25,796 nucleotides of DNA from a bacterium (GTDB taxonomy: Bacteria; Sysuimicrobiota; Sysuimicrobiia; Sysuimicrobiales; Kaftiobacteriaceae): positions 1 through 25,796 of the forward strand of contig JBIOWP010000042.1 in the NCBI GenBank assembly GCA_044868695.1, in the 5' to 3' direction. Position numbers and translations under genes: made by a program. Shown here piece by piece: positions 861-17,960 of the stretch. The notes under the pieces were generated by a model, which was given only the letters and a program-made list of their open reading frames with translations, had not been told where the DNA came from and made no database searches. Position 1 is the stretch's first letter, and each line of letters starts with the position of its first letter.

Positions 861-2585
861 GTGAGCATCCGGCCGGGTGGTGATCGCATCGGGCACTTTG
901 CCCTCGTGCTGCACGCCCACCTGCCCTTTGTGCTCGGACACGGACGCTGGCCGCACGGCAGCGACTGGCTGATGGAGGTCGCGCTCGGCTGCTACCTGCC
1001 GCTCCTGGACACGATCGGCGGCCTCGCGGCGGCGGGCACCTCTCCCCGTCTCACGATCGACATCTCTCCGGTGCTGGCCGAGCAGCTTGCCGCGCCCGCG
1101 TTCCGCGTGGGATTCGAAGCCTACCTGCGGGAACGCATGCAGTCCGCGCGGGAGAACCGCGCCGAGTTCGAGGCGGCCGCTCACCCGGAGCTGGCGCAGC
1201 TGGCCGTGGGGTGGGAAGAGCTGTACCGCAACCGGCTCGCGCAGTTCGAACGGCTCAACGGCGACCTCCCCGCCGCCTTCCGGTCCCTGGCCGACGCGGG
1301 CCACGTGACGCTGATCACATGCGCGGCGACGCACGGGTACCTGCCGCTTTTGTGCCGCGACGAGTCGGTCGAGCTGCAGCTGCGCGTTTCAGTCGCCTCG
1401 CACCAGCGAAACTTCGGCGCCCGGCCGGAGGGCATCTGGCTCCCGGAATGCGCGTACCGGCCTCGCTATGAGTGGACACCTCCGGTAGGACCTGGCAAGG
1501 GCCGCCTGCGCTACCGGCGGCGCGGGATCGAGGAATTTCTGGCCGTCGCCGGCCTGCGGTTTTTCATGACCGACCTCCACCTGGTCCGCGGCGGAGGCCC
1601 GCTATCCGCGTACCACGACTACTACCCGGTGCTGCAGACCCTGGCGGGCCCGGAGCCCCCGGCCTACCGGCCGGAGCGATCCCCGCACAGGCCGTACCTC
1701 GTCGCGTCGCGCGGAGGGCACGGGACGGCCGCCGCGTTCGTGCGCGACCCTGACACAACCGTGCAGGTGTGGAGCCGCGACCGCGGCTATCCGGGGGACG
1801 GGTGGTACCTGGAGTTCCACAAGAAACACGCGCGCGGCGGGCTGCGCTACTGGCGGGTGACCGAGGCGAAGACCGCGCTCGATGCCAAGCAGCCCTACGA
1901 TCCACAGCAGGCGGCGGAGCGGACGCGCGCGCAGGCGGCACACTTCGTCGACCTGGTGCGCCGCGTGGCGGCGGCGGCCCCCGAGGCGCCGCACGCGGTG
2001 GTGTGCAGCCCTTACGACGCCGAGTTGTTCGGCCACTGGTGGTTTGAGGGCCCGCGCTGGATGGCGGAAGTCTTTGCGCGCCTCCCAGAGGCCGGCATCG
2101 AGCCGGTCGACTGCGCCGCATACCTGCGAGCCCACCCGCCGCAGGACACCATTACGCTGCTGGAGGGCTCGTGGGGCGAGGGCGGGGATCACCGGGTGTG
2201 GCTGAACCGGGACACCGAGTGGACCTGGGAGCGGGTGTACGGCGCGGAAGAGGAGTTCTGGGCGCTCGCCCGGCAGGTGCGCGACCGTCCGGCGGATCCG
2301 GCGCGGCGCATCCTCGCCCAGCTCGCGCGTGAGCTGCTGCTGCTGCAGGCATCGGACTGGCAGTTTCTCATCACGACCTGGTCGGCGCGCGACTACGCCG
2401 AGGCGCGTGTCGACGATCACTATGCCGCCTTTACGCGCCTCGCACAGATGCTGCGGGCCAGCCTCGGCGGCGGGGCGCTGCCGCCGTCGGACGAGGAGTT
2501 CCTGACCGCCCGCGAAGCGCAAAACTTCCTGTTCCCCGACGTCCTGGCGCATGTCCTGGAGGCCTGCCGCGTGAACGCGGCGTAG
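861..2585 (+). CDS. GH57 family 1,4-alpha-glucan branching enzyme (DUF1957 C-terminal domain type)
   Basis: GH57 conserved regions HAHLP, WLPECAY (nucleophile Glu), PYDAELFGHWWFEG (acid/base Asp) and ASDWQF. GGAG lies just upstream of the GTG start. Confidence 0.9.
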   Translation: MSIRPGGDRIGHFALVLHAHLPFVLGHGRWPHGSDWLMEVALGCYLPLLDTIGGLAAAGTSPRLTIDISPVLAEQLAAPAFRVGFEAYLRERMQSARENRAEFEAAAHPELAQLAVGWEELYRNRLAQFERLNGDLPAAFRSLADAGHVTLITCAATHGYLPLLCRDESVELQLRVSVASHQRNFGARPEGIWLPECAYRPRYEWTPPVGPGKGRLRYRRRGIEEFLAVAGLRFFMTDLHLVRGGGPLSAYHDYYPVLQTLAGPEPPAYRPERSPHRPYLVASRGGHGTAAAFVRDPDTTVQVWSRDRGYPGDGWYLEFHKKHARGGLRYWRVTEAKTALDAKQPYDPQQAAERTRAQAAHFVDLVRRVAAAAPEAPHAVVCSPYDAELFGHWWFEGPRWMAEVFARLPEAGIEPVDCAAYLRAHPPQDTITLLEGSWGEGGDHRVWLNRDTEWTWERVYGAEEEFWALARQVRDRPADPARRILAQLARELLLLQASDWQFLITTWSARDYAEARVDDHYAAFTRLAQMLRASLGGGALPPSDEEFLTAREAQNFLFPDVLAHVLEACRVNAA

Positions 2586-2595
2586 TCTCACCGTT

Positions 2596-3795
2596 GTGAC
2601 CCGCCCGCGCGTTCTGGCGTTCGTGCTTGCCGGCGGCAAAGGCGAGCGGCTCTACCCGCTGACCCGGGAACGGGGCAAACCCGCCGTGCCGTTCGGCGGA
2701 AAGTACCGGATCATCGACTTCGTCCTGAGCAACCTCGTCAACTCAGGCGTCTACGCCCTCTACGTGCTCGTACAGTACAAGGCGCAGTCGCTGATCGAGC
2801 ACCTGCGCAACGCCTGGCGTCTGGGCGGCCTGCCGGACCACTTCGTGATCGTCGTCCCCCCACAGATGCGGTGGGGGGAGACCTGGTACCAGGGCACGGC
2901 CGACGCCGTGTACCAGAACCTCAACCTGCTGCTGGACTTCGCCCCCGATGTCATCGCCATCTTCGGCGCCGACCACGTCTACCGCATGGACATCGGCCAG
3001 ATGCTGGCCTTTCATCAGGAACGCGGCGCGGAGGCGACGGTGGCCGCGCTGCCCGTCCCGGCGGCCCAGGCGCGCAGCTTCGGCGTGATGGCGACTGAGC
3101 CGGACGGCCGCATCGTGCGGTTCGACGAGAAGCCGTCGTCGCCGGCCACCATGCCGGGGGATCCGTCTCGCGTCCTGGCGTCCATGGGAAACTACCTGTT
3201 TACGCGTGAGGCGCTCGTGGAGACGCTGGTCGAGGATGCGCGCCGCAGCACCGACCACGACTTCGGCCGGACGATCCTGCCCGAACTCATCCCGCACGCG
3301 CGCGTCTTCGCCTACAACTTCCTGGAGAACGCCGTTCCGGGCATACAACCGTATGAGGAGATCGGATACTGGCGGGACGTCGGTACCATCGAGGCCTACT
3401 GGCAGGCACACATGGATCTGCTCGGCCGCTCGCCCAGACTCGACCTGGCGAATGCGCAGTGGCCGATCTACACGGCGGCCTACCGCGGTCCGTCCGCGCG
3501 GGTGATCGACGGGACGATTGAGGACAGCCTCATGGGAGAAGGCAGCCGCGTGGAAGATGCGGCCGTCCGCCGGTCGATCCTCGGACGGGGGGTCCGCGTG
3601 CAGCCCGGCGCGGTCGTGGAAGAGTCGATCGTGCTGGACCACACGACCGTCGGGGCCGGCGCGCATCTCCGGCGGGTCATCGCCGACCGGTACAACGTGA
3701 TCCCGGAAGGCGCGCGGGTCGGCCTGGAGGCCGCGGCGGGCGACGACGCAGGGATCACCGTGCTGCCGCGCGGCCCGACCAGGGCTCCGCTCTAA
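2596..3795 (+). CDS. glgC: Glucose-1-phosphate adenylyltransferase (ADP-glucose pyrophosphorylase)
   Basis: LAGGKGERLYPLT...KPAVPFGGKYRIIDF, WYQGTADAV, FDEKP, ASMGNYLF, DFG and YWRDVGT motifs, followed by C-terminal beta-helix-like repeats. Confidence 0.95.
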   Translation: MTRPRVLAFVLAGGKGERLYPLTRERGKPAVPFGGKYRIIDFVLSNLVNSGVYALYVLVQYKAQSLIEHLRNAWRLGGLPDHFVIVVPPQMRWGETWYQGTADAVYQNLNLLLDFAPDVIAIFGADHVYRMDIGQMLAFHQERGAEATVAALPVPAAQARSFGVMATEPDGRIVRFDEKPSSPATMPGDPSRVLASMGNYLFTREALVETLVEDARRSTDHDFGRTILPELIPHARVFAYNFLENAVPGIQPYEEIGYWRDVGTIEAYWQAHMDLLGRSPRLDLANAQWPIYTAAYRGPSARVIDGTIEDSLMGEGSRVEDAAVRRSILGRGVRVQPGAVVEESIVLDHTTVGAGAHLRRVIADRYNVIPEGARVGLEAAAGDDAGITVLPRGPTRAPL

Positions 3796-3802
3796 CGACG
3801 GT

Positions 3803-6232
3803 ATGAGTTCACACTGGGTGGTCGTGCACGGGCACTTCTACCAGCCCGCCCGAGAAAATCCCTGGCTGGATGCCGTGGCGCTGCAGGATGCCGCCGCGCC
3901 GTACCACGATTGGAACGAGCGGGTCAACGCGGAATGCTACGCGCGCAACGCCGCCGCCCGCATGCTCGACGACGCCGGGCACATCGTCCGCATTGTCAAC
4001 AACTACGCCGCCATCAGCTTCAACGCCGGTCCCACGCTTCTGCGGTGGCTGGCGCGGCAGGCGCCGCCGGTGCACGCCGCCATGCTCGAAGGCGACCGCG
4101 TCAGCCGGCAGGCACACTTCGGCCACGGCAACGCCATCGCGCAGGTGTACAACCACGTCATCATGCCGCTGGCCTCCCCGAGGGACCAGGAGACCCAGGT
4201 CGTGTGGGGCATCAAGGACTTCGAGCGGCGATTCCGTCGGCGTCCGGAAGGCATGTGGCTGCCGGAGACCGCGGTGGACATCCCCACGCTGGAGGTCCTG
4301 GCCGCCCACCGGATGGCGTTCACCATCCTGTCTCCTCACCAGGCGTGGCGCATCCGGGGCGGACCGGACAGCCCCTGGTTCTACGTCGCCGAGGGCGCGC
4401 TGGATACCGCCGTGCCGTACCGGTGCCGCCTGCCGAGCGGGCGGTCGATCGCCATCTTCTTTTACGACGCCGCCCTCTCGCGCGCCATCGCCTTTGAAGG
4501 ATTGCTGAGCGACGGCGGCGCCCTCGCGCAGCGGCTGGCCGCCCCCATGGGCGGCGGGGACCCCCTGCCCCATCCGGCGCCGGCCGGCGGCCGACACATC
4601 CGCGTCGTGGCCACAGACGGCGAGTCCTACGGACACCATCACCGGTTCGGCGAAATGGCGCTGGCGTTCGCGCAGCAGCGGCTGGCCGCGGGCGAGGACG
4701 TACGGGTGACGAACTTCGGGGCGTACCTGGCGATGCATCCGCCGACCGCGGACGTGGAAATCCGCGAACGCACCTCGTGGAGCTGCCCGCACGGCGTCGA
4801 GCGATGGCGCGCCGACTGCGGCTGCAACACCGGAAAGGGATTTCACCAGCGATGGCGCGGCCCGCTGCGCGAGGCGATCTCCTGGCTGAAGCAGGAACTG
4901 GACGCGCTATTTGAGCACCAGACGGGCGGGCTGCTGCAGGATCCCTGGGCCGCGCGGGACGACGCCATCGATCTGGTCGATGCGGACCCCGGGGCGGGCG
5001 AGGCATTGCTTGCGCGTCACGGGCGGCCGGGGCTGGGCACCGAGCAGCGCCGGGGGGCCCTGCGCCTGCTGGAGGTGCAGCGCCAGGGCATGCTGATGCA
5101 GAGCAGCGACGGGTGGTTCTTCGACGACATCGCCGGTCCGGAGACGGTCCAGATCCTCACGCACGCCGCGCGGGCGCTCGACCTCGCCCGTGGGTGGAAC
5201 GACACCCTGGAGGCGGCCTTTACTCAGCGGCTGCGCGAGGCGCCCGGCAACACGGCCGAGCAGCCCGACGGCGCGGCGGTGTATGACGCTCAGGTGCGGC
5301 CGCAGGCGGTGCCTCCGGTCCGGCTGGTGGCGATGCACGCAATCGCCTCGCTCGTGGAGCATCCGCCCCGGATCGCCTCCCCCGCCGTGGCGATCCACCC
5401 GCTGGACGCCGAGCGCGCCGAGGCGGGCGGGCACCGCCTGCTCGTGGGCCGGGTGCGCCTCGACGCGCCCATCACGGGGGATCACCATGAAGCGGCGTAT
5501 GCCGTGGTGCACTTCGGGGGGCACGAGGTGCACTGCGCGGCGCGCGTCGATGTTCCGGCGGAGCAATTTGCGGAGTTCCGGGCGGCGCTGCTGCGCCGGT
5601 TCGGGAGGGACGTGCTCAGTGAGGTCATGCGCGCGCTTGACGCGGCGCTGGGCCCGGCCTACTTCACCCTGCGCGATCTTCCCCTCGAGGACCGCCGGCG
5701 CATCCTCGCAGCCCTGACCGCGCAGCAACTGCAGGCGCTGGATGAGACGTACCGGCGCGTCTACCAGGAGAACCGCGCGCTGATGCAGTATCTGCGAGAT
5801 GCGCAGGCGCCCATCCCGCCCCCGATGGTGCTGGCGGCCGTCGTCGTCCTGACCCGCGATCTCGAAGCCGAGCTGGGCGCCCCGCCGGACCGGGCGCTGT
5901 CACGCCGGTCGTCCGAACTAGTCGGGGAGCTGCGGTCGTGGGGCCGCGACGTCCGCGCCGACCGGTTCGAGCCGCTGCTGCGCGCCCGCCTCGAGGGTGC
6001 GCTGGGAGGATCGCAACCGGCCCGCGAGCGGCTGGAGCGCGCGGCAGAGGTCCTGGATCTGGCGGAGGCGGCGGGCGTGACGCTGGAAGTGTGGGAGGCG
6101 CAGAACCGGTTCTACGACCTCGTGCGGGCGGCACGCGCGCAGGAGGCCGCGGACCTCTTACGCGCGGTCGGCACGCGCCTCTCCTTCAACATGGACCGGC
6201 TGATGGCCGAGAGCGCCCTGGGATACGCATGA
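3803..6232 (+). CDS. GH57 family glycoside hydrolase with DUF3536 C-terminal domain
   Basis: HGHFYQP-REN-PW, WLPETA, TDGESYGHH, SWSCxHGVERW and GWFFDD motifs; 809 aa. Confidence 0.88.
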   Translation: MSSHWVVVHGHFYQPARENPWLDAVALQDAAAPYHDWNERVNAECYARNAAARMLDDAGHIVRIVNNYAAISFNAGPTLLRWLARQAPPVHAAMLEGDRVSRQAHFGHGNAIAQVYNHVIMPLASPRDQETQVVWGIKDFERRFRRRPEGMWLPETAVDIPTLEVLAAHRMAFTILSPHQAWRIRGGPDSPWFYVAEGALDTAVPYRCRLPSGRSIAIFFYDAALSRAIAFEGLLSDGGALAQRLAAPMGGGDPLPHPAPAGGRHIRVVATDGESYGHHHRFGEMALAFAQQRLAAGEDVRVTNFGAYLAMHPPTADVEIRERTSWSCPHGVERWRADCGCNTGKGFHQRWRGPLREAISWLKQELDALFEHQTGGLLQDPWAARDDAIDLVDADPGAGEALLARHGRPGLGTEQRRGALRLLEVQRQGMLMQSSDGWFFDDIAGPETVQILTHAARALDLARGWNDTLEAAFTQRLREAPGNTAEQPDGAAVYDAQVRPQAVPPVRLVAMHAIASLVEHPPRIASPAVAIHPLDAERAEAGGHRLLVGRVRLDAPITGDHHEAAYAVVHFGGHEVHCAARVDVPAEQFAEFRAALLRRFGRDVLSEVMRALDAALGPAYFTLRDLPLEDRRRILAALTAQQLQALDETYRRVYQENRALMQYLRDAQAPIPPPMVLAAVVVLTRDLEAELGAPPDRALSRRSSELVGELRSWGRDVRADRFEPLLRARLEGALGGSQPARERLERAAEVLDLAEAAGVTLEVWEAQNRFYDLVRAARAQEAADLLRAVGTRLSFNMDRLMAESALGYA

Positions 6233-6882
6233 GCACGCAGCCGCCGTTTGAGTTCGTCGAATGCCTGGAACTGCGCGAGATGCTCGGCCGCGCGGCATGG
6301 GACGAGCGCGAGCTCCTGGCCGGCATCGAAGATGTCCCCTCCGACTCCCTCCGCTACCACACCCGCAGCTACTTCCTGCGCAGCCGCTACCTGCCCGCGC
6401 CGTATCCCAACGACTTCGCCACCTGGGCGGCGATTCAGGTGCGGGACCGCGTGCTGGGCGAGCGCCTGGCCGTCGTAGACCCGTTTGGGTTCTCTGACAT
6501 CGAGCTGCTGCGCGCGGAGCTGAGCACGATCGTCGACAGCCACCTCGCGTCGCTGCCGTCGGTTCCCCGCGTCGACTACGGCGAGCCGTTCCACTTCATG
6601 CGGTCGGTGTTGATCGAAGTCCCGACCGGGGTGATGACCACCACGCTGAGGGAATTCCGCGACGGCCTGGCCCGCGTCGACGCCAGCGCCATCTACTATC
6701 ACTTCTACGAGTCCGCCCGCCGGCGCCCGGAGGCCGACCCGCTGGCCTGGCTGGAGGAGCACCGGCTGGCCGACGTCGCCGCGCGGGTGCGTAAGTTGAA
6801 CCCTTACATGAGCAGCCTGGACGGCACGCGGTCGCAGCTGCTGGCCATCTGCGATCAGGTGCTGGGGCATCCCAATGGCTGA
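6229..6882 (+). CDS. DUF5752-like protein (TreT-associated, function unknown), 217 aa
   Basis: Likely start is the ATG at 6229 (ATGA overlap with the upstream stop), giving MSTQPPFEF. Motifs SLRYH...YPNDFATW and SAIYYHF...LAW show an internal two-fold repeat. Directly precedes treT. Confidence 0.8.
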   Translation: MSTQPPFEFVECLELREMLGRAAWDERELLAGIEDVPSDSLRYHTRSYFLRSRYLPAPYPNDFATWAAIQVRDRVLGERLAVVDPFGFSDIELLRAELSTIVDSHLASLPSVPRVDYGEPFHFMRSVLIEVPTGVMTTTLREFRDGLARVDASAIYYHFYESARRRPEADPLAWLEEHRLADVAARVRKLNPYMSSLDGTRSQLLAICDQVLGHPNG

Positions 6883-8101
6883 ACCCGCGATCCGCCTCGA
6901 CGATTACCACAGCGTCGTCACCCCCGGCACCGTGGACCTGCTCCGGAGGCTGGCGGACCGCGTGCGGGGGCGGTCGTTGCTGCACGTGAACTCCACGCGC
7001 GTGGGCGGCGGCGTGGCCGAGATGCTGGAGCGGTACGTGCCGCTGTTCAGCGAGTTGGGACTGACGGTGCGGTGGGAGGTCATCTCAGGCGCTGAGGAGT
7101 TCTTCCGGGTGACTAAGAGTTTTCACAACGCGCTCCAGGGCCAGGAACAGGCGTTCACCGATGCGATGTTTCAGGCCTACTTGGAGGCCAACCGTGAGAA
7201 CGCGGCCCGGCTGAACTTGAATGCCGACGTCGTCATCATCCACGATCCCCAGCCGGCCGCGCTGATCGCCGGCGGCCCGGGCAAAGTCTCCTCCGACCGG
7301 ACCGGACGCTGGGTGTGGCGCTGCCACATCGACGTCTCCCGTCCTCAGCGCCGCGCGTGGGCGTTTCTCCGGCAGTTCGTCACCCAGTATGACGGCGCGA
7401 TCTTCTCGCTGCCAAAGTTCGCCCAGCGGCTGCCGATCCCGCAGTACCTCATTTATCCAAGCATCGACCCGCTGTCGGAGAAAAACCGTGATCTCACCGC
7501 TCAGGAGATCGCCGCGGTGCTGGAGCGGCTCAGCGTGCCGCAGGACAAACCGATCCTGCTCCAAGTGTCCCGGTTCGACCGGTTCAAGGATCCCATCGGG
7601 GTCATCAACGCGTATCGTCTGGTAAAGAAATACGATGACTGCCGGCTGGTGCTGGCCGGCGGGTCGGCGGACGACGATCCGGAAGGCGCCCAGGTCCTCG
7701 CCGAGGTGATGGAGGCCGCGGGTAGCGACCCGGACCTTCACGTGCTGGTCCTGCCGCCCAATGCGCACCATGAAATCAACGCGCTGCAGCGGGCGGCGGC
7801 GATCATCATCCAGAAATCCACCCGCGAAGGCTTCGGGCTCACGGTGGCGGAGGGCATGTGGAAGGGCAAGCCGGTGATCGGCGGGTTCGCCGGCGGTATC
7901 ACCGTGCAGATCATCTACGGCGTCACGGGGTACACCGTGAACTCGGTCGAAGGCTGCGCCTTCAGGATCCGCTATCTCCTGCACAACCCGGAACTGGCCG
8001 CGCAGATGGGGCAGCAGGCCCGCGAGTATGTCCGGGAGCGCTTCCTCATCACCCGCGATTTGGCTGAACACCTCGCGCTGATGGTGACCCTGCGCCGCTA
8101 G
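6875..8101 (+). CDS. treT: Trehalose synthase (glycosyl-transferring, GT4)
   Basis: HVNST..GGGVAEML, TKSFHNALQG, IHDPQP, WRCHID, QVSRFDRFKDP and QKSTREGFGLTVAEGMWKGKPV motifs typical of TreT. Confidence 0.88.
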   Translation: MAEPAIRLDDYHSVVTPGTVDLLRRLADRVRGRSLLHVNSTRVGGGVAEMLERYVPLFSELGLTVRWEVISGAEEFFRVTKSFHNALQGQEQAFTDAMFQAYLEANRENAARLNLNADVVIIHDPQPAALIAGGPGKVSSDRTGRWVWRCHIDVSRPQRRAWAFLRQFVTQYDGAIFSLPKFAQRLPIPQYLIYPSIDPLSEKNRDLTAQEIAAVLERLSVPQDKPILLQVSRFDRFKDPIGVINAYRLVKKYDDCRLVLAGGSADDDPEGAQVLAEVMEAAGSDPDLHVLVLPPNAHHEINALQRAAAIIIQKSTREGFGLTVAEGMWKGKPVIGGFAGGITVQIIYGVTGYTVNSVEGCAFRIRYLLHNPELAAQMGQQAREYVRERFLITRDLAEHLALMVTLRR

Positions 8102-10355
8102 CCCGCCACTCCGCCAGCAGGCGCAGAAACGCCTCCACGTCCTGCACATCGCGGGCCACGTACCGCGCCGCCGTCAGGTAGGTGGGACTGCCCACTTTCA
8201 CGGTGATCGCCGGCTCCGGCAGCGCCATGTACGCATCTTCGTCGGTCCGGTCGTCGCCGATGTAGACGGCCGCCACCCGGTCGGCCCAGTCCCCGCCGTA
8301 TGCGCGCTCGAGAATTGCCCGGGCGGCGCTGCCTTTGTCCCACGCCGTGCCCGGGCGCACGTCCAGCACCTGTTTTCCCTGCCGGACGGTCAGCTGGGGC
8401 GCACGGGCGGCCTCTTCAAGCACCGCCACCCGCACCTCTTCCACCTGAGGCAGCGGAGTCTGCCGGTAGTGGATGCTCGCGGTCAGCCCTTTGTCCTCCA
8501 CGACAACGCCGGCGACCCCGCTCAGCCGCTCGCGCAGTCGCCGGCAAATTTCGCCGATCGCTTCTCGGGCGGATTCCGCTTCCGGGAGCGTCCAGACCGA
8601 CGTCCCGAAAGCCACCTCCAACCCATGGTTGCCTGCGTACACGAACTCGGGGAACCCGACACGGCTCCGGATGTCATCCAACGCCCTTCCGCTGATGACG
8701 GCCACGAGGACGCCGCGCGCGCCGGCGAGCGCCCGCAGGACCTCGTGCGCCGAATCGGGCAGGGCCGCCAGCTCCGGGGAAGGCGCGATCGGCGCCAGGG
8801 TGCCGTCGAAGTCGAGCAGCAGCGCCAGCGGCCGGCCGGTCACACGAGGCCGGATCTGGTCGGCGTGATCGAGCAGCCAGTGGCTGGCCTCGCGCGCGGC
8901 CAGGAGGTGGCCCACGTGCTGCAGGTGCTGGGCCATCCACCTGTAGATGTCATGTTCGGCCACATAGGTCCGCAGGTGCTGCATCCGGACCTGGCGCTCC
9001 TCCGGATCCATCTCCAGCGCGCGCTGCAGCGATTCGGCGAACCCCTCCGCGTCGTACGGGTTGATCGGCACCGCCCACGGCAACTCGTCCCTCGCACCGG
9101 CCAGCTCGCTCAGCACCAGCACGCCCCGGAGGTCCACCTGGCAGGCGACAAATTCCTTGGCCACCAGATTCATGCCGTCGGCGAGAGAGCTGACCACGCA
9201 GGCATCGGCCATCCGGTACAGCGCCGCCAGCCCCTCCTGCGGCAGCGGCTCCGGGAGATAGATGATCGGACGCCACTGCTCTGTGCCGTAGGCGGCGTTG
9301 AGCCGCTCGATCTCATCCTCCACGCGCCGCTGCAGGTCGCGGTAGCTCTTGATCTGCGTGCGGCTGGGCGCGCTCTTTTGAATGAACACCAGCCGCTCAC
9401 GGTAGGACGGCGTCCGCTGGAACAGCGCTTCGAGTGCGCGGAACCGCTCCGGGATCCCCTTAGTGTAGTCCAGACGATCGAGCCCCAGGGCCACGAGCCG
9501 GCCGGCCAGCCCAAAGCGGCGCTGCAGACGCGACATCCATTGCTGGCAGGATTCCGAGCGCGCGAGCTGGTCCAGCGCGCCCGCATCCACGCTGATGGGA
9601 AACGCCTGGACGCGGGTGAGACGGCCGTCATACTCGACCGTGGATTCGTCGCGGTCCACCCGCGCGCCGAGTTCGCGCTCCGCGGCCTCGAGGAAGTGCC
9701 CGACGTGGCGGGGGTGCTGCAGGCCTACCAGGTCGTTGCCCAGCAGGCCGTCGAGCAGTTCCGCGCGCTGCGGGCAGATACGGAACACGTCCCACGCGGG
9801 CCACGGGATATGCCAGAAGGTCATGACGAACCCATCCGGCCTCCGCTGGCGCAGGTAGCGCGGGCACAACGCCAGGTGATAGTCGTGCACCCACACGATG
9901 GCATCGGCGCGCAGGCCGGACAGCGCGGCCTCCGCAAACCGGCGGTTGGCCGTCTGGTAGGCCTCCCAGTGCTGCTGCCGGAAGCGCGCGTGCTGCATCG
10001 CAAGGTGGCAGAGCGGCCACAGCGCCTGATTGGCGTAGCCGTAATAGAAGCCTTCGACTTCGTCGTCGGTGAGCCGCACGCGTCGCAGCGTGTAGGCCGG
10101 CGCCTGCGGGGGCACGCGCACCCGCCCCTCGGCGTCGGTCACGTCAAAGTCCGCGTCGCCGCTTCCCCAGGCGACCCACGTCCCGCCCACCGCCTGCAGG
10201 ACCGGGTCCAGCGCCGCGGCCAGACCACCCACCGGCCGGTGCACCATGATGCCCCGGCGGCTGCGCCGGTGCTCGTACGGCTCCCGGTTGCTGACGACGA
10301 CCATCTGGTGGTCGCCCAACAGCCCGGCGACGGCGGCGGCGGGAGATTCCGTCAC
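8049..10355 (-). CDS. otsAB: Bifunctional trehalose-6-phosphate synthase/phosphatase (OtsA-OtsB fusion), about 768 aa
   Basis: GT20 motifs SNREP, GGL, YYGYANQALWPLCH, WVHDYHL, FWHIPWP, DRLDYTKG and DGMNLVAKEF. HAD motifs DFDGTL, ISGR, GNHG and GDDRTDED. Start placed at GTG 10355 (GTGA overlap with the yihY stop, GAGG upstream). Confidence 0.93.
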   Translation of the reverse strand: MTESPAAAVAGLLGDHQMVVVSNREPYEHRRSRRGIMVHRPVGGLAAALDPVLQAVGGTWVAWGSGDADFDVTDAEGRVRVPPQAPAYTLRRVRLTDDEVEGFYYGYANQALWPLCHLAMQHARFRQQHWEAYQTANRRFAEAALSGLRADAIVWVHDYHLALCPRYLRQRRPDGFVMTFWHIPWPAWDVFRICPQRAELLDGLLGNDLVGLQHPRHVGHFLEAAERELGARVDRDESTVEYDGRLTRVQAFPISVDAGALDQLARSESCQQWMSRLQRRFGLAGRLVALGLDRLDYTKGIPERFRALEALFQRTPSYRERLVFIQKSAPSRTQIKSYRDLQRRVEDEIERLNAAYGTEQWRPIIYLPEPLPQEGLAALYRMADACVVSSLADGMNLVAKEFVACQVDLRGVLVLSELAGARDELPWAVPINPYDAEGFAESLQRALEMDPEERQVRMQHLRTYVAEHDIYRWMAQHLQHVGHLLAAREASHWLLDHADQIRPRVTGRPLALLLDFDGTLAPIAPSPELAALPDSAHEVLRALAGARGVLVAVISGRALDDIRSRVGFPEFVYAGNHGLEVAFGTSVWTLPEAESAREAIGEICRRLRERLSGVAGVVVEDKGLTASIHYRQTPLPQVEEVRVAVLEEAARAPQLTVRQGKQVLDVRPGTAWDKGSAARAILERAYGGDWADRVAAVYIGDDRTDEDAYMALPEPAITVKVGSPTYLTAARYVARDVQDVEAFLRLLAEWRASGAGSPSARGVQPNRG

Positions 10356-11188
10356 AGCGCACCTCGCCGGCGCGACTCCATCAGCCACATGATTTCCGCG
10401 CTCAGCAGGACCAGCACGGCCACCAGGTAGACCCACGCCATGAACACGATCAGGCCGGCTAGCGGGCCGTAGATGATCGGATACGTCGCCAGCGTGCTGA
10501 GATACCAGAAGAAAGCGCGCCGGGTGCCCTCAAAGAGCAGCACGGCCAGGGTCGTCCCCGCCAGCAGGCTGCTCCACGCGAGGCGGACGTTGGGCAGCAC
10601 GCGGTAGATAATGAAGAAGGCTGCCCCGGAAAACAGGCCCGGGCTCAGCGCCGTCACCACCGCCACGCCGCGCGTGGCGCGCAGCATCTCGACCACTTCC
10701 GCCACCTTCGGCACGGACTCCATCGCCGAGGCCACAATCGGAATGACCACCGACAGCCCAATGAATCCGCCGCCCAGCAGGACGATGACCAGATCCACCA
10801 TCTTCGTGCGCAGGAAGCCGCGCGCCCGCTCCGCCCGGAGCACCCGGTTCAGGGCGCGGCGCAGCGACCCGGCCACCGTCGTCGCGCTCCACAGCAGGCC
10901 CACCGCGGCCACCGCTCCGACGGTCCCCCTCGTCTGCACGATCGCGTCCAATGTGTCGCGAACGAGCGTCAGCGCGTCGGACGGAAGGTAGGGCCCCAGC
11001 GCCGCGATCGCAGCATACTGCGCCTGGGCGCGGTCCACCACGAGGCTGAGCAATGCGATCACAATGATCAGAAGGGGGAACACGGAAAAGACCGCGGCGT
11101 AGGCGACGGCGGCAGCCAGGACGAAGATGTCGTCGGCGGCCAGGTTCCGAGAGAGCGTCTGCCACAGCCCTTCCGCCACGTCCGTCAC
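10352..11188 (-). CDS. YihY/virulence factor BrkB family inner membrane protein
   Basis: AAAVAYAAVFSVFPLL, IYRVLPN and YPIIYGPLAGLIVFMAWVY...LLSAE motifs; multiple hydrophobic segments; 278 aa. Confidence 0.85.
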   Translation of the reverse strand: MTDVAEGLWQTLSRNLAADDIFVLAAAVAYAAVFSVFPLLIIVIALLSLVVDRAQAQYAAIAALGPYLPSDALTLVRDTLDAIVQTRGTVGAVAAVGLLWSATTVAGSLRRALNRVLRAERARGFLRTKMVDLVIVLLGGGFIGLSVVIPIVASAMESVPKVAEVVEMLRATRGVAVVTALSPGLFSGAAFFIIYRVLPNVRLAWSSLLAGTTLAVLLFEGTRRAFFWYLSTLATYPIIYGPLAGLIVFMAWVYLVAVLVLLSAEIMWLMESRRRGAL

Positions 11189-12267
11189 GGGCGGCTCCCG
11201 ACGCGCACCGGCGCTCCGACGGTTCCGCGCAGGTACACCGTCTGCGTGGGATAAGCAAACTCAATCCCATGCTGCCGGAACTGGCGGACCACCTCCAGAT
11301 TGATCGCCTGCTGAAGATCCATATAGACGTTATAGTCCGGGCTTAGCACAAAGTAGACAACCTCAAAGGTTAGCGCGAAGTCGCCGTACGCTTTGAAGTG
11401 GGCGCGGTCAAACCGCGTGGAAACCTGCGCCTCGACCACCCGCCGCACCATCGCCGGAATCGCGGCCAGCGTGTCGGGCGGCGTCTCATACGCCACTCCG
11501 AAGGTGAATTCCACGCGACGCTCCACCATTCGCTTGAAGTTCCGGATCCGGCTGCTGAGGAGGTCGCCGTTGGCAAAGACCAGCTGTTCGCCGGACAGGC
11601 TGCGGACGCGCGTCGTCTTCAGCCCGATGTACTCTACCGTGCCCAGCAGATCGTCCACGACGATGAAATCGCCGACGCTGAAGGGCCGGTCCAGCACAAT
11701 GGAAAACGCAGCGAGCAAATCCCCGAGGATGTTCTGCAGGGCTAACGCAACGGCGATGCCGCCCACCCCAAGACCTGCGACAAGGCCGGTGATGTTGACC
11801 CCGACGTTGTCCAGGGCGACAAGCAGGACGACCGTCCACAGTGCCAGTTTGGCGACAAAGCTGAACACGGCGATGGTCGTGACGCTGGCCGCGTCTCGTT
11901 CCACCCGTTGGTGGATGTAGTGGGACACTGCGAACGTGAGCAGGGCATTGCCCCACAGCCCAACCTGCAGCAGCACCACCATGCCTGCGATACTGGCGAC
12001 CGTGCGACTGACACCGGCCGGCAGCGCGAGAACCTGGGCGCCGGCGGCCACCGCCAGCACGACAACGAAGAACGGTCTCGTGCCCGCGACCAGATTGAGC
12101 AGGAGTGTGTCCAGGTCGGTGGAGGTCTTGCCGGTGGGGGCGCGGAGCCGGCGGACGGTGGCGCCTTTCAGCCAGCGCAGGGCCGCCCCGACGACGACGG
12201 CCGCGGCCAGGGCAACCATCCACCGCTGGACCGGATTGCCGTAGATCTCGAGCTCCAAAAAGGTCAT
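11185..12267 (-). CDS. mscS: Small-conductance mechanosensitive channel (MscS family), 360 aa
   Basis: AGLGVGGIAVALALQNILGD, DRPFSVGDFI, GTVEYIGLKTTR and GIEFAYPTQ motifs. ATG at 12267 follows a GGAGGT Shine-Dalgarno. Confidence 0.9.
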   Translation of the reverse strand: MTFLELEIYGNPVQRWMVALAAAVVVGAALRWLKGATVRRLRAPTGKTSTDLDTLLLNLVAGTRPFFVVVLAVAAGAQVLALPAGVSRTVASIAGMVVLLQVGLWGNALLTFAVSHYIHQRVERDAASVTTIAVFSFVAKLALWTVVLLVALDNVGVNITGLVAGLGVGGIAVALALQNILGDLLAAFSIVLDRPFSVGDFIVVDDLLGTVEYIGLKTTRVRSLSGEQLVFANGDLLSSRIRNFKRMVERRVEFTFGVAYETPPDTLAAIPAMVRRVVEAQVSTRFDRAHFKAYGDFALTFEVVYFVLSPDYNVYMDLQQAINLEVVRQFRQHGIEFAYPTQTVYLRGTVGAPVRVGSRP

Positions 12268-12374
12268 GGTGCTGTCACCACCTCCCTTGACTGCTCCCAG
12301 CCTGCAGCAAACGATCTGAGCTCGTCGCCCGGTTCCCCGATCGTGGTCCACCCGCAGGAAATTCCAGAGGGCTG

Positions 12375-12408
12375 GAAACGAAAACGCCCGGAGAAGGGCA
12401 CTCCGGGC
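12375..12408 (-). terminator. Intrinsic terminator in the mscS leader (riboswitch expression platform)
   Basis: Minus strand reads GCCCGGAG-ugcccuu-CUCCGGGC (perfect 8-bp stem) followed by GUUUUCGUUUC. Confidence 0.8.
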
Positions 12409-12426
12409 ACACGAAACCCTGGTCGC

Positions 12427-12552
12427 CCTCTCACGCTGCCTGCGGGGTTAGTTGACGGGCTCAGGTCGAGAGGTACCTTACCCGCGCGATTTGCGCGGGA
12501 TTCGCCCCAGTCTTGCGTCCCCCGCTCCCCGACATGAGGATTCGGCAGGCAC
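12427..12552 (-). ncRNA. Cyclic di-AMP riboswitch (ydaO/yuaA class) aptamer
   Basis: Minus strand carries the class hallmarks in order: GCCGAAUCC, GGGGGA, UGGGGCGAAUC, hairpin CCCGCGC/GCGCGGG, GGUA, stem-loop AGGU-ACCUCUCG-ACCU and GAGCCCGUCAACUAACCCCG. Terminal complementarity UGCCUGC/GCAGGCA, and a 3' GAGAGG complementary to the loop CCUCUC (pseudoknot). Confidence 0.88.
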
Positions 12553-12571
12553 TACTCACACATCTCGATCA

Positions 12572-12600
12572 AGTATAGCACTCATGACCCTTGCTGGAAT
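12572..12600 (-). promoter_or_regulatory. Putative sigma70-type extended -10 promoter (TGcTATACT) for the riboswitch-mscS-yihY-otsAB transcript
   Basis: Minus-strand TGCTATACT at 12580-12572, about 20 nt upstream of the aptamer. Only a weak -35 (TTCCAG). Confidence 0.6.
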
Positions 12601-12648
12601 CCGTCCCATCGGAGTACGCTGACAACAGGCAAAGGCGGAGCGGGATCA

Positions 12649-13164
12649 ATGCGATGCGCCACTCACCCAACTGTGGAGACCGAGCTGAGGTGTGCAACCT
12701 GCGCCAGGCCGATCTGCCCAGACTGCATGGTCGAGACCCCCGTGGGCATGAAATGCTGGGAATGCGGCCGGTCGCCGCTGCCCCCGATGTACCGGGTAAG
12801 CCCTCAATCGCTCGCGCTGGCGATGCTGGCAGGAGTCGTGGTCGGGGCGCTGTCCGGCGCGGTCATGCTGGTCTGGCGGGCGGCCATCGGGTTCTTGCTG
12901 ATCTTCTTCGGCCTACTCGCAGGCGTCGTCATCGGCGAAGTGGCTGGACGCGCGGGCAGCGGCAAGCGTGGGCCGGTCATAGCCACCGCTGTGGCCGCCT
13001 CGTGCGCGGTCGGCGCCCTCTTGCTTGCGCCTCAGCTCATGATGCTGGCTGCCGAAGGAGTGCCGCTGCCTCTCGATGAACTGCTGAGCGTTCTCGTGCG
13101 GCGACCGTTTTTCGTCCTTTCCGTGGGGCTCGCCGCGATGATGGCATTCCAGCACCTGCGCTGA
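12649..13164 (+). CDS. Membrane protein with N-terminal B-box-like zinc finger
   Basis: C-x2-HP-x6-C-x2-C-x4-C-x2-C-x8-C-x2-C pattern (CATHPTVETELRCATCARPICPDCMVETPVGMKCWEC), followed by about 4 hydrophobic helices. Confidence 0.75.
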   Translation: MRCATHPTVETELRCATCARPICPDCMVETPVGMKCWECGRSPLPPMYRVSPQSLALAMLAGVVVGALSGAVMLVWRAAIGFLLIFFGLLAGVVIGEVAGRAGSGKRGPVIATAVAASCAVGALLLAPQLMMLAAEGVPLPLDELLSVLVRRPFFVLSVGLAAMMAFQHLR

Positions 13165-13228
13165 CCGCTAGAGTTGATGAGACAAAGACCATCCGGCGAT
13201 GTGAAGTCAGATCACGCGAGGTTCATCC

Positions 13229-13972
13229 GTGCGAGATAGTCTGCGCTCCAGTGTGTCCCGTCTGCCCGGCGACTGTCCGATCACCTGGGCGCTGATTGCA
13301 TCGAACGCCGCGACGTTTCTGCTGGCCTTCGTCTCAAGCGCCCCGGTCGGACGGCTCGCCTTTGTCTCGCACGACCTCGTGGCCCGCCCCTGGGCCGCCG
13401 TGACGTATCCGCTGGTGGGCTCAAGCAGCATCTTCTGGCTCCTGATCGGGGGTTATGTGTTCTGGCTGTTCGGGGGCAGCCTCGAGCGGGCGTGGCGGTG
13501 GCGCGACTACACGGTCTTCCTCGTCGCGTCCGCCGTCGTGCCAGCGATCAGTGTCTGGCTGGGCGGGACGCTGACCGGCCGGGTGACGGCCCTAACCGGC
13601 CTCTGGCTGCCGCTGGCCGCGGCCACCGTCGCCTGGGCCGCGGTCAATCCGTACGAACGGGTCTTGATGTACTTCATCATCCCACTGGAAGCCCGCTGGC
13701 TGGCGCTGGTCATGGTCGCGTTCGTCGTGTTCTCCGCGGAGTTCCCGCTCGGAATCTTCGCGGCGGCCGGATGCGGCATGGCCTGGTGGTACGCGCGGAC
13801 CGGCAGGTACCGGTTGTGGAACATCGCGCGACTGCGACCGGCTCCGCGGACGCGGGCGCGGCGCGAGGACGAACGGTTCTCCCTCAACCCGCTCGTCCTG
13901 CTGCGGCGCTGGCGCACGCGGCGGCGTTTCCTGCGGGTGGTCCGGGACTCGGAGTTCAAGAAGCTGCACTGA
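13229..13972 (+). CDS. Rhomboid-superfamily-like membrane protein, probably catalytically inactive
   Basis: PITWALIASN, PWAAVTYPL, FGGSLERAW, AAVNP and YFIIPLEARWL resemble rhomboid/Der1-like folds. No GxSG or catalytic His is seen. Basic C-terminal tail. Confidence 0.6.
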   Translation: MRDSLRSSVSRLPGDCPITWALIASNAATFLLAFVSSAPVGRLAFVSHDLVARPWAAVTYPLVGSSSIFWLLIGGYVFWLFGGSLERAWRWRDYTVFLVASAVVPAISVWLGGTLTGRVTALTGLWLPLAAATVAWAAVNPYERVLMYFIIPLEARWLALVMVAFVVFSAEFPLGIFAAAGCGMAWWYARTGRYRLWNIARLRPAPRTRARREDERFSLNPLVLLRRWRTRRRFLRVVRDSEFKKLH

Positions 13973-14940
13973 TGCCCCTCGTCGCGTTGATCGCCATCGT
14001 CGCCGTGCCGGCGATCCAGGTCGGGTACGCGGCCGCGATTGAGTCCGCGCTGCGGCGGCTCCCCGAGCGCACCCAGTGGGCGCTCCGGCCCTGGCTGTGG
14101 CTGGCGCCGGCGCTGGCGTTCCTCGCGGTCTTTCTCATCTACCCGGCGCTCCACACCGTCTACCTGAGTCTCCTGGACGCGCGCTCGACGGCGTTCGTCG
14201 GCGTGAAAAACTATGCCTTCGCCTTTACGAACCGTGAGATGCTCCTCGCCTTTCGCAACAACCTGCTCTGGCTGGTGTGCTTCACCGGGCTGACGGTAGG
14301 GATCGGCCTGGTGCTGGCCGTCCTCACCGACCGCGTGCGCTACGAGGCCGCGGCCAAATCGATCATCTTCCTGCCGATGGCGATCTCCTTCGTGGCCGCG
14401 AGTGTGATCTGGAAGTTTGTCTATGAGTTTCGGCCCGCCGGCGCGCCGCAGATCGGGCTGCTCAATGCGGTTCTCACGGCGGCGATCCCTGACGGTCAGC
14501 CGGTGGCCTGGCTGGTCAACCTGCGCCTGAATAACCTGGCCCTCATCGGGGTGGCGGTGTGGGTGTGGGTGGGGTTTTGCCTGGTCATCCTCTCGGCAGG
14601 GCTGAAAGGCATCCCCTCCGAGCTGCTGGAGGCGGCGCGCGTTGACGGCGCGACCGAATGGCAGGTCTTCCGGAAGATCCTCCTCCCCGCCCTCAGCACC
14701 ACGCTCATCGTCGTCACCACAACGATGGTCATCTTCGCCCTGAAGGCGTTCGACGTCGTCTACGTCATGACCAACGGCAACCTCAACACCGAAGTGATCG
14801 CCAACCGCATGTACAAGGAGATGTTCACCTTCCGCGACTTTGGACGCGCGAGCGCCATCGCCGTCATCTTGTTTGCGGCGACGGTGCCCGTGATGATCGC
14901 CAACATCCGGCGGTTCCGCCAGCAGGAAGCGGTCCGATGA
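13972..14940 (+). CDS. Carbohydrate ABC transporter permease (AglF/MalF-like), 322 aa
   Basis: ATG at 13972 (TGATG overlap). Motifs WLAPAL..LIYP, FLPMAISFV and EAA loop ELLEAARVDGA. Confidence 0.9.
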   Translation: MPLVALIAIVAVPAIQVGYAAAIESALRRLPERTQWALRPWLWLAPALAFLAVFLIYPALHTVYLSLLDARSTAFVGVKNYAFAFTNREMLLAFRNNLLWLVCFTGLTVGIGLVLAVLTDRVRYEAAAKSIIFLPMAISFVAASVIWKFVYEFRPAGAPQIGLLNAVLTAAIPDGQPVAWLVNLRLNNLALIGVAVWVWVGFCLVILSAGLKGIPSELLEAARVDGATEWQVFRKILLPALSTTLIVVTTTMVIFALKAFDVVYVMTNGNLNTEVIANRMYKEMFTFRDFGRASAIAVILFAATVPVMIANIRRFRQQEAVR

Positions 14941-15821
14941 CGGTAGAGATGACGGCTGCCGGACCGAGGCCCCGGCATCCGCTCGTCGCCGCCCTGCGCC
15001 GCGCCCCCCTCCACGCCGTGGTCATCGGGCTGTGCGTGGTGTGGCTGATCCCCACCCTGGGCCTGCTGGTCAGCTCGTTCCGGCCGCCCCGCCTGGTCAC
15101 GGTGTCGGGGTGGTGGACGGCGCTGGTCCCCCCGGGGCCGTTCACGCTGCAGAACTATCGCGACGTTCTGGGCGCGTACAACATGGGCCGCAGTTTCCTC
15201 AACAGCCTGCTCATCACGCTCCCGGCCACCGTCATCCCGGTCATGGTGGCCGCCTATGCCGCGTATGCGTTCGCCTGGATGCGCTTTCGCGGCCGCGAAC
15301 TGTTGTTCACGATCGTCGTCGGCTCGCTGGTCATCCCGCTGCAGATGACATTGATCCCCGTCCTGCGGCTGTTCACGACGCTCGGACTGGTCGGCACGTT
15401 CCCGGCGGTATGGCTGGCCCACACGGGATACGGCCTGCCGTTCGCGATCTACCTGCTGCGGAACTTCATGGGGGCGCTGCCGAGAGACCTGCTGGAATCA
15501 GCCTCGATTGACGGCGCCACGCCGCTCGTGGTGTTCTTCCGTCTCATTCTTCCCCTCGCCGTGCCGGCCATCGCCTCCCTCGTGATCTTCCAGTTCCTGT
15601 GGGTGTGGAACGATCTGCTGGTGGCCTTGATCTACGTCGGCGGGACGCCGCAGGTGGCGCCGATGACGGTCACGGTCGGCAACCTGGTGAATTCTCTGGG
15701 GCAGAACTGGCAGCTGCTCACCGCCGCGGCGTTCATCTCGATGGCGCTCCCGATGCTGGTCTTCTTCGCGCTGCAGCAGTATTTCGTGCGCGGCATCCTG
15801 TCGGGCGCTGTGAAGGGGTAG
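14937..15821 (+). CDS. Carbohydrate ABC transporter permease (AglG/MalG-like), 294 aa
   Basis: ATG at 14937 (ATGA overlap). Motifs LLVSSFRP, DLLESASIDGA, FQFLWVWNDL and QQYFVRGILSGAVKG. Confidence 0.9.
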   Translation: MTVEMTAAGPRPRHPLVAALRRAPLHAVVIGLCVVWLIPTLGLLVSSFRPPRLVTVSGWWTALVPPGPFTLQNYRDVLGAYNMGRSFLNSLLITLPATVIPVMVAAYAAYAFAWMRFRGRELLFTIVVGSLVIPLQMTLIPVLRLFTTLGLVGTFPAVWLAHTGYGLPFAIYLLRNFMGALPRDLLESASIDGATPLVVFFRLILPLAVPAIASLVIFQFLWVWNDLLVALIYVGGTPQVAPMTVTVGNLVNSLGQNWQLLTAAAFISMALPMLVFFALQQYFVRGILSGAVKG

Positions 15822-15901
15822 CGCGGGAGGGGCGCTCAACGGTATCATGAAGGTCGGGACGACTAGAGGATCTCGTCGCAAGACGAGAGAGGAGGCGTGG
15901 A

Positions 15902-16525
15902 ATGCCGTATCCGTTCAAGCTGCCGGACCTGGGGTATGCCTACAACGTCCTGGAGCCACATCTGGACGCCCAGACGATGGAAATTCATCATTCCAAGCAC
16001 CACGCGGCGTACGTAAACAACCTCAACGCCGCGCTCGAAAAGCACGCCGCGTTTCACATGAAAGAAGTGGAAGACCTGCTGAGCAGTCTGTCCGACCTAC
16101 CCTCTGAGGTGCAGACAGCCGTGCGCAATAACGGCGGTGGGCACCTCAACCACAGCCTGTGGTGGCGCTGGATCGCCCCGGGCGGCAGCAAGGAGCCGAA
16201 GGGCAGGCTCGCCGACGCCCTCAAGGGAGCCTTCAACAGCCTCGACGCGTTCAAGGAGCAGTTTGCGCAGGCGGGGATGACGCGGTTCGGATCCGGATGG
16301 GCCTGGCTCGCCCTGGACCGCGGCGGCAAGCTCAAGATCTACTCCACGGCCAACCAGGACTCACCGGTAAGCGAAGGCAACAAACCGGTGCTCGGCCTCG
16401 ACGTGTGGGAGCACGCGTACTACCTGAAGTACCAGAACCGCCGGGCGGACTACATCAAGGCCTGGTGGAACGTCGTAAACTGGGACGCGGTCGGCCAGAG
16501 CTACGACAAAGCAATGTCCCGCTGA
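15902..16525 (+). CDS. sodA: Superoxide dismutase, Mn-type by signature residues
   Basis: [16 protein letters not shown] (Gly-Gly of the Mn type), ANQD and DVWEHAYY motifs. GGAGG RBS upstream. Confidence 0.93.
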
Positions 16526-16535
16526 CCGGCGCGCA

Positions 16536-16575
16536 CAGGAAACGGGACGCGGGCAACCCCCCGTCCCGTTTCTTG
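16536..16575. terminator. Probable bidirectional intrinsic terminator between convergent sodA and the SBP gene
   Basis: GAAACGGGACG...GG-GCAA-CC...CGTCCCGTTTC inverted repeat with a GNRA loop, and A/T runs at the stem base. Confidence 0.75.
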
Positions 16576-16595
16576 TTCCCGCGTTCCCGCGTTCC

Positions 16596-17936
16596 CTATC
16601 TCTTGTACGCTTCCCCCGCCACCCGCTCCAGGTTCTGCAGGATGGAGTTCAGCCGCGACGGGCTGCGCACGTAGTCGAGGGTGCCTTTCCAGAACGCGGC
16701 GTTGACCGCCTCGGGCATCAGGTCGCTGGCGTCGAACCGTGCGACCTCCGCGGAGGTCAGGATCTCCGCCGCCCGGCGGCTGAGCGGGTCTGGATAGTTG
16801 TCCGGGCTGACCTTGCGGTTGGGCGACAGCGCCCCGCCGCGCTTCACCCAGATGGCCTGCGCTTCCGGGGTCGTCAGGTATTTCATCAACGCGCGGGCCT
16901 GCGGCGTGTCGCGGAACATTCCGAATAGGTCCCCCGCGGCCTCCACAGCCTTCGGCACCGCGGGGTCGATCGACGGGAACGCGAAGAAGTCAAAATCCTC
17001 ACCGGGCTGCAGGTTGGGGAACTGCTTCTGGATGAAATCCTGGATGAACGTCGCCTGGTGGTGCAGGTAGCAGCTCGGCGGATCGTTGAACATCGGGAAC
17101 GGCGACTCGCCGAAGTTCGTCGTGAGCACCCCGTCCGCCCCGCCGTAGACGGACTTGGGATTGGTCGCGATCGTCCCGAACAGTTCCCACGCCCGCCTGA
17201 CCACCGGATCGGTCCAGGCGATGTCGTGCCGGTACCACCGGTCGTAGGCGTCGGGGCCCGCGGTCCGCAGCATGATGTCCTCGATCCAGTCCGTCGCGGG
17301 CCACCCGCTGGCCGCTCCGCTTTCCAGACCGATGCACCATGCCGTCTTGCCGTCCGCGGCGATGCGGCTCGTCAATGCGAGGAGCTCGTCCCAGGTCGCA
17401 GGCACCTCGAAGCCGGCGGCGGCAAACGCCTGGGGATTGTACCAGATCAGTCCCTTGAGCGCCGCCTTGACAAAGATCCCGTAGACTTTCCCATCGACCG
17501 TCCCCAGGTCGATCCAGCTCTGCGCGTACTGCTCTTTCATGGCGCCCAGATCGACCACGCCGTCCAGCGGGACCAGTTTGCCGGCCCGGGCGAACTCTGC
17601 CATCTGGCCCGGTCCCGGCAGCCCGGCAACGTCGGGTGGGTTCCCGCCTTCCAGGCGGGTGGTCAGCACGGTATTGAGGTCGCGGGTCCCTTCGAACTGC
17701 ACGCTGATGCCGGTCCGTTCCTCGAAGGGCTTCACCATCGCCAGGAAGCTCTCCAGCTCCCCGCCGCCCCAGACGCCCAAGACCGTCACCGTCCCGCCCA
17801 CCTTCTGCCCGGGCAGCACGCCGGTGCGGCGTGTGTAGGAGTACAGACCGCCGGCCAGGGCGACGACCACCACGATGATGACGATCCAGGCGATCGCGCC
17901 GAGTCCGGCCTGTGACCATCGGCTGCGTCCGGTCAT
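16596..17936 (-). CDS. Carbohydrate ABC transporter substrate-binding protein (AglE-like, alpha-glucoside cluster)
   Basis: GNPPDVA, KGLIWYN, WCIGLESGAASGWPATDWIED, HHQATF and RFDASDLMP motifs. Start set at ATG 17936 for GGAGG spacing (alternative 17942). Confidence 0.88.
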   Translation of the reverse strand: MTGRSRWSQAGLGAIAWIVIIVVVVALAGGLYSYTRRTGVLPGQKVGGTVTVLGVWGGGELESFLAMVKPFEERTGISVQFEGTRDLNTVLTTRLEGGNPPDVAGLPGPGQMAEFARAGKLVPLDGVVDLGAMKEQYAQSWIDLGTVDGKVYGIFVKAALKGLIWYNPQAFAAAGFEVPATWDELLALTSRIAADGKTAWCIGLESGAASGWPATDWIEDIMLRTAGPDAYDRWYRHDIAWTDPVVRRAWELFGTIATNPKSVYGGADGVLTTNFGESPFPMFNDPPSCYLHHQATFIQDFIQKQFPNLQPGEDFDFFAFPSIDPAVPKAVEAAGDLFGMFRDTPQARALMKYLTTPEAQAIWVKRGGALSPNRKVSPDNYPDPLSRRAAEILTSAEVARFDASDLMPEAVNAAFWKGTLDYVRSPSRLNSILQNLERVAGEAYKR

Positions 17937-17960
17937 GAGCATCCCTCCCTCTCTTCTCTG

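Follow-up and report, generated by a model that had tools for sequence, protein, structure and literature searches.

A predicted c-di-AMP riboswitch ahead of mscS, yihY and otsAB, and trehalose synthesis as the conserved target of its class in an uncultured bacterial phylum

The minus strand of a 25,796-nt stretch of bacterial DNA (GCA_044868695.1, contig JBIOWP010000042.1, positions 1 to 25,796, forward strand; hereafter the window) carries a leader in which an aptamer of the cyclic di-adenosine monophosphate (c-di-AMP) class is followed by a terminator and by three genes, mscS, yihY and a fused otsAB. We consider it likely that this riboswitch is an OFF switch that prematurely terminates a predicted mscS-yihY-otsAB transcript, with ligand binding, termination, the single transcript, trehalose as what the enzyme makes and its role as an osmolyte all predicted here from sequence comparison. 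Across the phylum, trehalose synthesis is the conserved target of the riboswitch, and the "complete turgor module" proposed in the initial annotation of the window is a local arrangement.

The aptamer is the sole Rfam match in the window and exceeds the RF00379 cut-off of 38 bits by a wide margin over the full model, with bounds (12557-12423) that enclose those of the ydaO-class aptamer originally called at 12552-12427 on the minus strand (Table 1). The helices of both three-way junctions and the long-range pseudoknot are present in it, the latter at the same position as in the crystal construct of PMC5393176 (articles cited by PMC number are drawn on in excerpt). The extended -10 element that had been noted upstream of the aptamer is there as well; between 8049 and 12700 the minus strand has four -10-like hexamers, and only this one has the TG extension. 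By our reading the -35 element is poor, and a strict sigma-70 scan of 7500-13500 returned no promoters. In the phylum, 31 of 40 aptamers have a -10-like hexamer in the 70 nt before P1, and 21 of 40 have a TG-extended one, compared with 6.3% and 0.4%, respectively, of random windows taken from the genomes, most of them coding.

Table 1. Features of the riboswitch-led unit in the window.
Feature	Positions	Strand	Basis or detail
Extended -10, TG-n-TATACT	12572..12580	-	sequence; transcription start predicted near 12565
c-di-AMP (ydaO/yuaA) aptamer	12423..12557	-	RF00379, 83.9 bits, E 1.9e-18, model 1-134 complete
Pseudoknot 5' strand, pyrimidine loop	12467..12473	-	7 bp with 12433-12427, read from sequence
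Switching purine strand, serving the pseudoknot as 3' strand or the antiterminator as 5' strand	12425..12433	-	pairing analysis
Antiterminator 3' strand, covering the terminator loop and the beginning of the 3' arm	12391..12399	-	nascent hairpin, pairing analysis
Intrinsic terminator hairpin and U-rich tail	12376..12410	-	stem 12410-12384; terminator scan and covariation
mscS ribosome-binding site	12279..12285	-	sequence
mscS, MscS-family channel, 360 aa	11185..12267	-	three Pfam MS_channel domains (1st/2nd/3rd) above their cut-offs
yihY, YihY/BrkB-family inner membrane protein, 278 aa	10352..11188	-	PF03631; TIGR00765 119.9 (cut-off 73.15)
Fused otsAB	8049..10355	-	PF00982 and PF02358 in one frame; PRK14501 672.7 (cut-off 634)

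The leader, in its 5' position, carries an expression platform that is incompatible with the ligand-bound fold, as its pseudoknot, antiterminator and terminator are three mutually exclusive helices. Covariation was assessed in an alignment of 39 distinct phylum sequences, with 500 shuffles and slid controls. Aptamer, pseudoknot and terminator taken together are paired in 95.9% of cells, with compensatory change in 17 of 42 pairs, which none of the 500 shuffles matches, and the slid controls reach 38-52%. The pseudoknot helix by itself is 91.9% paired in relatives (compensatory change in four of seven pairs) and the terminator helix 95.0% (five of nine). The terminator, which had been predicted after the aptamer and was found again by our scan, has a folding energy of -17.3 kcal/mol and seven U in ten, and a hairpin of -12.7 kcal/mol or better is present in 38 of the 41 phylum leaders, with variable U-tails. 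The main antiterminator helix is paired in 93.2% of cells and has 11 compensatory cells, a number that 0 of 500 shuffles attain; the duplex between a leader's own tail and its own terminator is more stable than that with a foreign one (-14.96 versus -13.56 kcal/mol; permutation p 5e-5, with kin not independent). When folded free of pseudoknots, the nascent leader adopts the antiterminator (-19.5 kcal/mol), and the full leader also adopts it instead of the terminator.

Because the purine strand has two exclusive partners, in the pseudoknot and in the antiterminator, the leader is likely to be an OFF switch by termination, a direction that the initial annotation had left unstated. In a studied homologue, the switching element that responds to ligand is the pseudoknot, which c-di-AMP stabilises (PMC11963983), so that high c-di-AMP should stop transcription and low c-di-AMP permit it; c-di-AMP causes termination in a Dehalobacter leader (PMC9337991) and in a Streptomyces leader (PMC10117811), and a high level is described as a signal of no osmotic distress (PMC9337991). 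At low c-di-AMP, as would be expected at high outside osmolarity, pairing of 12433-12425 with the terminator loop and arm would come ahead of terminator closure, and the antiterminator so formed would allow RNA polymerase to read through, leading to trehalose synthesis and, at the same time, pre-installing the one MscS-type channel of the host. At high c-di-AMP, ligand binding would lock 12433-12425 in the pseudoknot, the terminator would close, and transcription would end near 12376.

Several observations on the leader weigh against this reading. Antiterminator covariation is modest, with both-side change in five pairs versus 1.9 in shuffled alignments; 9 of 500 shuffles are as high, one slid control likewise reaches five, and a second antiterminator helix is paired in only 63.7% of cells in the alignment register used. 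The folding-energy z-score of 0.03 does not set the leader apart, and folding energy was dropped as support. Repression of MscS at high c-di-AMP would also be counter-intuitive. Finally, this aptamer copy has G for C at 12516, where 37 of 39 relatives have C, and A for G at 12452, where 39 of 39 have G. Such changes at near-invariant positions would fit a weakened or decaying aptamer that responds poorly to c-di-AMP and leaves the operon largely constitutive, as would the finding that the closest OtsA kin on a quick tree are without the riboswitch; decayed remnants upstream of otsA in two genomes (G036 and G063, discussed below) indicate that aptamer decay occurs in the phylum. We nevertheless regard decay of this copy as unlikely, given its score relative to the cut-off, a P7 pair that has changed on both sides from G-C to A-U, and the intact pseudoknot, antiterminator and terminator. 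Moreover, the two substitutions lie, by our reading, in the poorly resolved internal "bubble" of the aptamer, most of which is unresolved in the crystal (PMC5393176), and may be pairing partners of one another.

The three genes downstream are those initially annotated, since their families are confirmed and the GTGA overlaps at the mscS/yihY and yihY/otsAB junctions can be read directly from the sequence. The mscS product is the only PF00924 match in the host genome; its nearest solved structure is YnaI, with the TM2/3, beta and C-terminal domains all matched. A small hairpin over the mscS ribosome-binding region and start codon (12281-12266, minus strand), followed by a U run, may damp mscS translation. 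The otsAB start at 10355 is deduced from the overlap and an upstream GAGGT, and the list of open reading frames (ORFs) has an earlier GTG at 10436. With otsA 2.1 kb from the aptamer, the riboswitch could gate only mscS and yihY, while otsAB is transcribed from an internal promoter. Weak terminator-like matches (11283-11262 and 11107-11091) and -10-like hexamers (11636 and 11017) do lie within the unit, and in Thermoproteus tenax the tpsp gene has its own promoter inside the operon and yields a monocistronic transcript besides the tricistronic one (PMC3634074), which speaks against a single transcript here. This arrangement is nevertheless quite improbable in view of the GTGA overlaps at both junctions, the lack of a TG extension in any of the internal hexamers, and the fact that otsA directly follows the aptamer in 21 of the 30 linked relatives.

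The OtsAB protein is predicted to make trehalose, with NDP-glucose and glucose-6-phosphate as substrates. Its translation contains SNREP, HDYH, DRLDYTKG, DGMNLV and DFDGT, which we take to be the catalytic motifs. A point against this assignment is that the OtsA-only model TIGR02400 stays under its cut-off (469.3, cut-off 564.85). Together with a neighbourhood of glycogen and alpha-glucan metabolism (glgC, three GH57 genes and treT) and the published interpretation of trehalose in the phylum as an energy store (PMC11962464), this would suit a genuine switch that serves carbon storage, or the making of a different glycoside such as glucosylglycerol, instead of osmoprotection by trehalose. Such an output is very improbable, as the fused-enzyme model PRK14501 and the T6PP model are both over their cut-offs, the glucosylglycerol model is far under (314.1, cut-off 569), the best solved relative is the trehalose-phosphate synthase 5JIJ (E 2.5e-94), and two other aptamers (G039 and G067) lead an ABC importer with an MGH1-like hydrolase gene.

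The host genome (2.59 Mb, 95% complete) likely belongs to Candidatus Sysuimicrobiota, because the nearest named relatives of its OtsAB, a "Bacillati bacterium ANGP1" metagenome-assembled genome (80%) and then Ca. Calidihabitans tengchongensis (66%), include in the latter a member of this phylum. Our survey covered 94 phylum genomes, many of them incomplete and with kin not independent. RF00379 is found in 37 of these at 41 sites, and GT20 in 58. A search with a model built from 40 of the sites, in which no more than 26-44 candidates were scored in each genome, recovered the identical 41. As many as 30 of the 41 aptamers, in 30 genomes, are on the same strand as otsA and at most 3.3 kb upstream of it. 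The first gene after the aptamer is otsA in 21 cases, a TreT-like GT4 gene in five, yihY in four, genes for a sugar-binding protein and a cupin in three each, and mscS, CBM48, a G8-domain gene, a small ORF and the contig end in one each, with a K+ transporter or cell-wall hydrolase in none of the 40 readable cases (the 41st being the contig end). These relatives support the part of the initial annotation that linked the riboswitch to trehalose synthesis. They do not uphold the accompanying channel: only 2 of the 30 riboswitch-led units (those of the host and G057) contain mscS, so that the turgor module is not a conserved unit, and mscS was ruled out as a conserved target. G002 and G004 share the mscS-yihY-otsA order but have no aptamer with it. 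In 26 of the 40 genomes that have both genes, yihY lies within 4 kb of otsA, in either orientation.

Weighing against a general link, 28 of the 58 otsA-bearing genomes are without a linked aptamer. The 22 of these that were checked directly (all but G064, G069, G072, G077, G078 and G081) gave no aptamer match. An Rfam search for missed aptamers found none in 20 phylum otsA loci and three outside loci, and our own model found none above noise at 25 otsA loci, with only a remnant of E 0.69 in G036. The decayed 3' half of an aptamer is seen just upstream of otsA in G036 (L065) and G063 (L089), and in both remnants a perfect -10 hexamer lies within the dead aptamer. The quick OtsA tree has no root test and omits linked G006, G018 and G066 and unlinked G001, G053 and G060, where the genes are partial or broken; on it, aptamer linkage requires eight changes and is interleaved through the main clade. 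This interleaving, together with the decayed vestiges, favours an old link between aptamer and otsA that may have been lost repeatedly. Among the genes concerned, yihY is in two pieces in G030 (C16) and G079 (C173), and otsA in G066 (C34), which may reflect frameshift or assembly error.

The platform itself also varies. In three of the 41 leaders (L043, L079 and L083, in G042, G079 and G065, respectively) the terminator has been lost and the start codon comes shortly after the purine strand, a layout that points to a possible shift from transcriptional to translational control. Beyond the phylum genomes, a pattern scan of metagenomes returned 16 loci, all 16 with RF00379. These loci are mostly not independent, because in 12 the fused enzyme shares 62-100% identity with phylum loci. 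In three others OtsA is unfused, less than 51% identical to any compared locus, and still linked to the aptamer, and one locus is without otsA.

The initial annotation implied c-di-AMP signalling in this lineage, and a search for cyclases agrees with it: the host encodes a CdaA diadenylate cyclase that passes the TIGR00159 cut-off (237.5 bits, cut-off 188.8) and a PgpH-type 7TM-HD protein, a candidate phosphodiesterase, and a DAC domain is present in 86 of the 94 phylum genomes. Two ORFs downstream of the host cdaA, the first without an NCBIfam match, are presumably cdaR and glmM. TrkA_C domains occur on four contigs of the host genome. The host has a second aptamer (L001, G000:C84:133-270; RF00379, 98.7 bits) with a clear promoter and the same terminator platform, divergent from an SLC13-like permease gene with TrkA_C domains. 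Its contig stops 132 nt downstream, cutting off the target gene, and no contig overlapping the end of C84 was found in the host genome.

In fold, pseudoknot and predicted OFF control by termination, the leader resembles the RF00379 riboswitches of Bacillus subtilis ydaO(kimA)/ktrAB and Streptomyces rpfA, from which it differs in having trehalose synthesis as its target. The class is known to control genes for the transport of K+ and amino acids and for enzymes of the cell wall (PMC10117811, PMC7266159, PMC3766115), and the consulted parts of the Sun 2013 regulon survey contain no trehalose, otsA or mscS genes (PMC3766115). Osmoprotectant synthesis as a target in cyanobacteria is credited to Nelson 2013 by PMC5986932. 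A likeness exists to the tandem Na+/c-di-AMP riboswitch on ablA of Dehalobacter sp. CF, where a gene of osmolyte-precursor synthesis is subject to c-di-AMP-dependent termination, shown in vitro (PMC9337991); unlike in that leader, the main pairing here is with the terminator loop and 3' arm. As in the Thermoanaerobacter pseudethanolicus riboswitch, it is the pseudoknot 3' strand that switches, but that riboswitch hides the Shine-Dalgarno sequence and acts on translation (PMC11963983), resembling G042, G065 and G079 rather than this copy. No title or abstract in the literature covered links a c-di-AMP riboswitch to otsA, with most subscription journals, including Nelson 2013, outside that coverage. 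Term searches of the main texts of PMC11962464 and PMC11604079, both on the phylum, gave no riboswitch or c-di-AMP terms, and the consulted parts of PMC5473149 and PMC6753628 have no further bearing on the link between riboswitch and otsA.

The gene layout is like that of T. tenax msc-gt-tpsp, in which a mechanosensitive channel is co-encoded with a fused TPSP, and the proposed unit would co-express channel and solute synthesis as in the T. tenax model, where solute is made under stress and let out after a downshock (PMC3634074). It is alike in layout and not a member: the T. tenax operon is archaeal, requires a GT4 activator and has no riboswitch reported in the consulted parts of PMC3634074, whereas here yihY stands between mscS and otsAB and the unit is without a GT4 gene. 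Five linked phylum relatives have a TreT-like GT4 gene first. Eight loci (L028, L029, L032, L034, L037, L051, L062 and L064) have a second, divergent TreT-like GT4 upstream of yihY/otsAB, at about 45% to the window TreT, and this GT4 may correspond to the TPSP activator of T. tenax; the EGFG motif is retained in five of five TreT-like copies among those listed.

Control of compatible-solute synthesis by c-di-AMP is thus already in print for another osmolyte (PMC9337991), and an operon of mechanosensitive channel plus TPSP is already known (PMC3634074). What is new is the target: across a phylum the riboswitch is linked chiefly to trehalose synthesis, and yihY is often found alongside. Tentatively, and with a good deal of doubt, one may propose that the RNA arm of c-di-AMP signalling in this phylum served ancestrally for compatible-sugar metabolism, not K+ uptake or the cell wall, and was lost repeatedly, and that trehalose synthesis has in YihY a membrane partner of its own, either an exporter or an anchor. 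If true, the YihY/BrkB family would gain a testable function; as it stands, the findings tie this uncharacterised family to trehalose synthesis. They would also widen the turgor logic of c-di-AMP from solute uptake to trehalose synthesis in a whole uncultured phylum, one that is abundant in deep soil and in most members of which trehalose synthesis is reported (PMC11962464), and they argue for trehalose there as a regulated stress solute and not merely a store. Knowledge of the riboswitch class itself is unchanged, but the survey yields 41 natural versions of a single compact pseudoknot/antiterminator/terminator platform, among them apparently translational and decayed forms.

Other aptamers of the phylum stand before different genes. 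In L042 (G039) and L078 (G067), the aptamer leads a sugar ABC importer with an MGH1-like hydrolase gene behind it. The hydrolase is confirmed by Pfam in L042 and matched by sequence similarity in L078; importer and hydrolase fit compatible solutes, and these loci are possible units for mannosyl- or glucosylglycerate uptake. In three genera, the aptamer precedes a cupin-domain protein of about 370 aa and of one family (L035, L082 and L084, in G003, G080 and G063, respectively), for which a search with the L035 copy gave no NCBIfam name.

In the window, the plus strand of 861-8101 encodes a GH57 branching enzyme, glgC, a GH57/DUF3536 protein, a DUF5752 protein and treT, convergent with the otsAB unit. 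The treT gene overlaps the end of otsAB by 53 nt, a tail-to-tail layout seen in several same-family genomes, and two trehalose routes (treT and otsAB) thus face each other. On the other side of the leader, 13972-17942 holds sugar ABC permease genes on the plus strand and a binding-protein gene on the minus strand, with sodA between them; an ortholog (80%) of this sugar-binding protein is a riboswitch target in G051.

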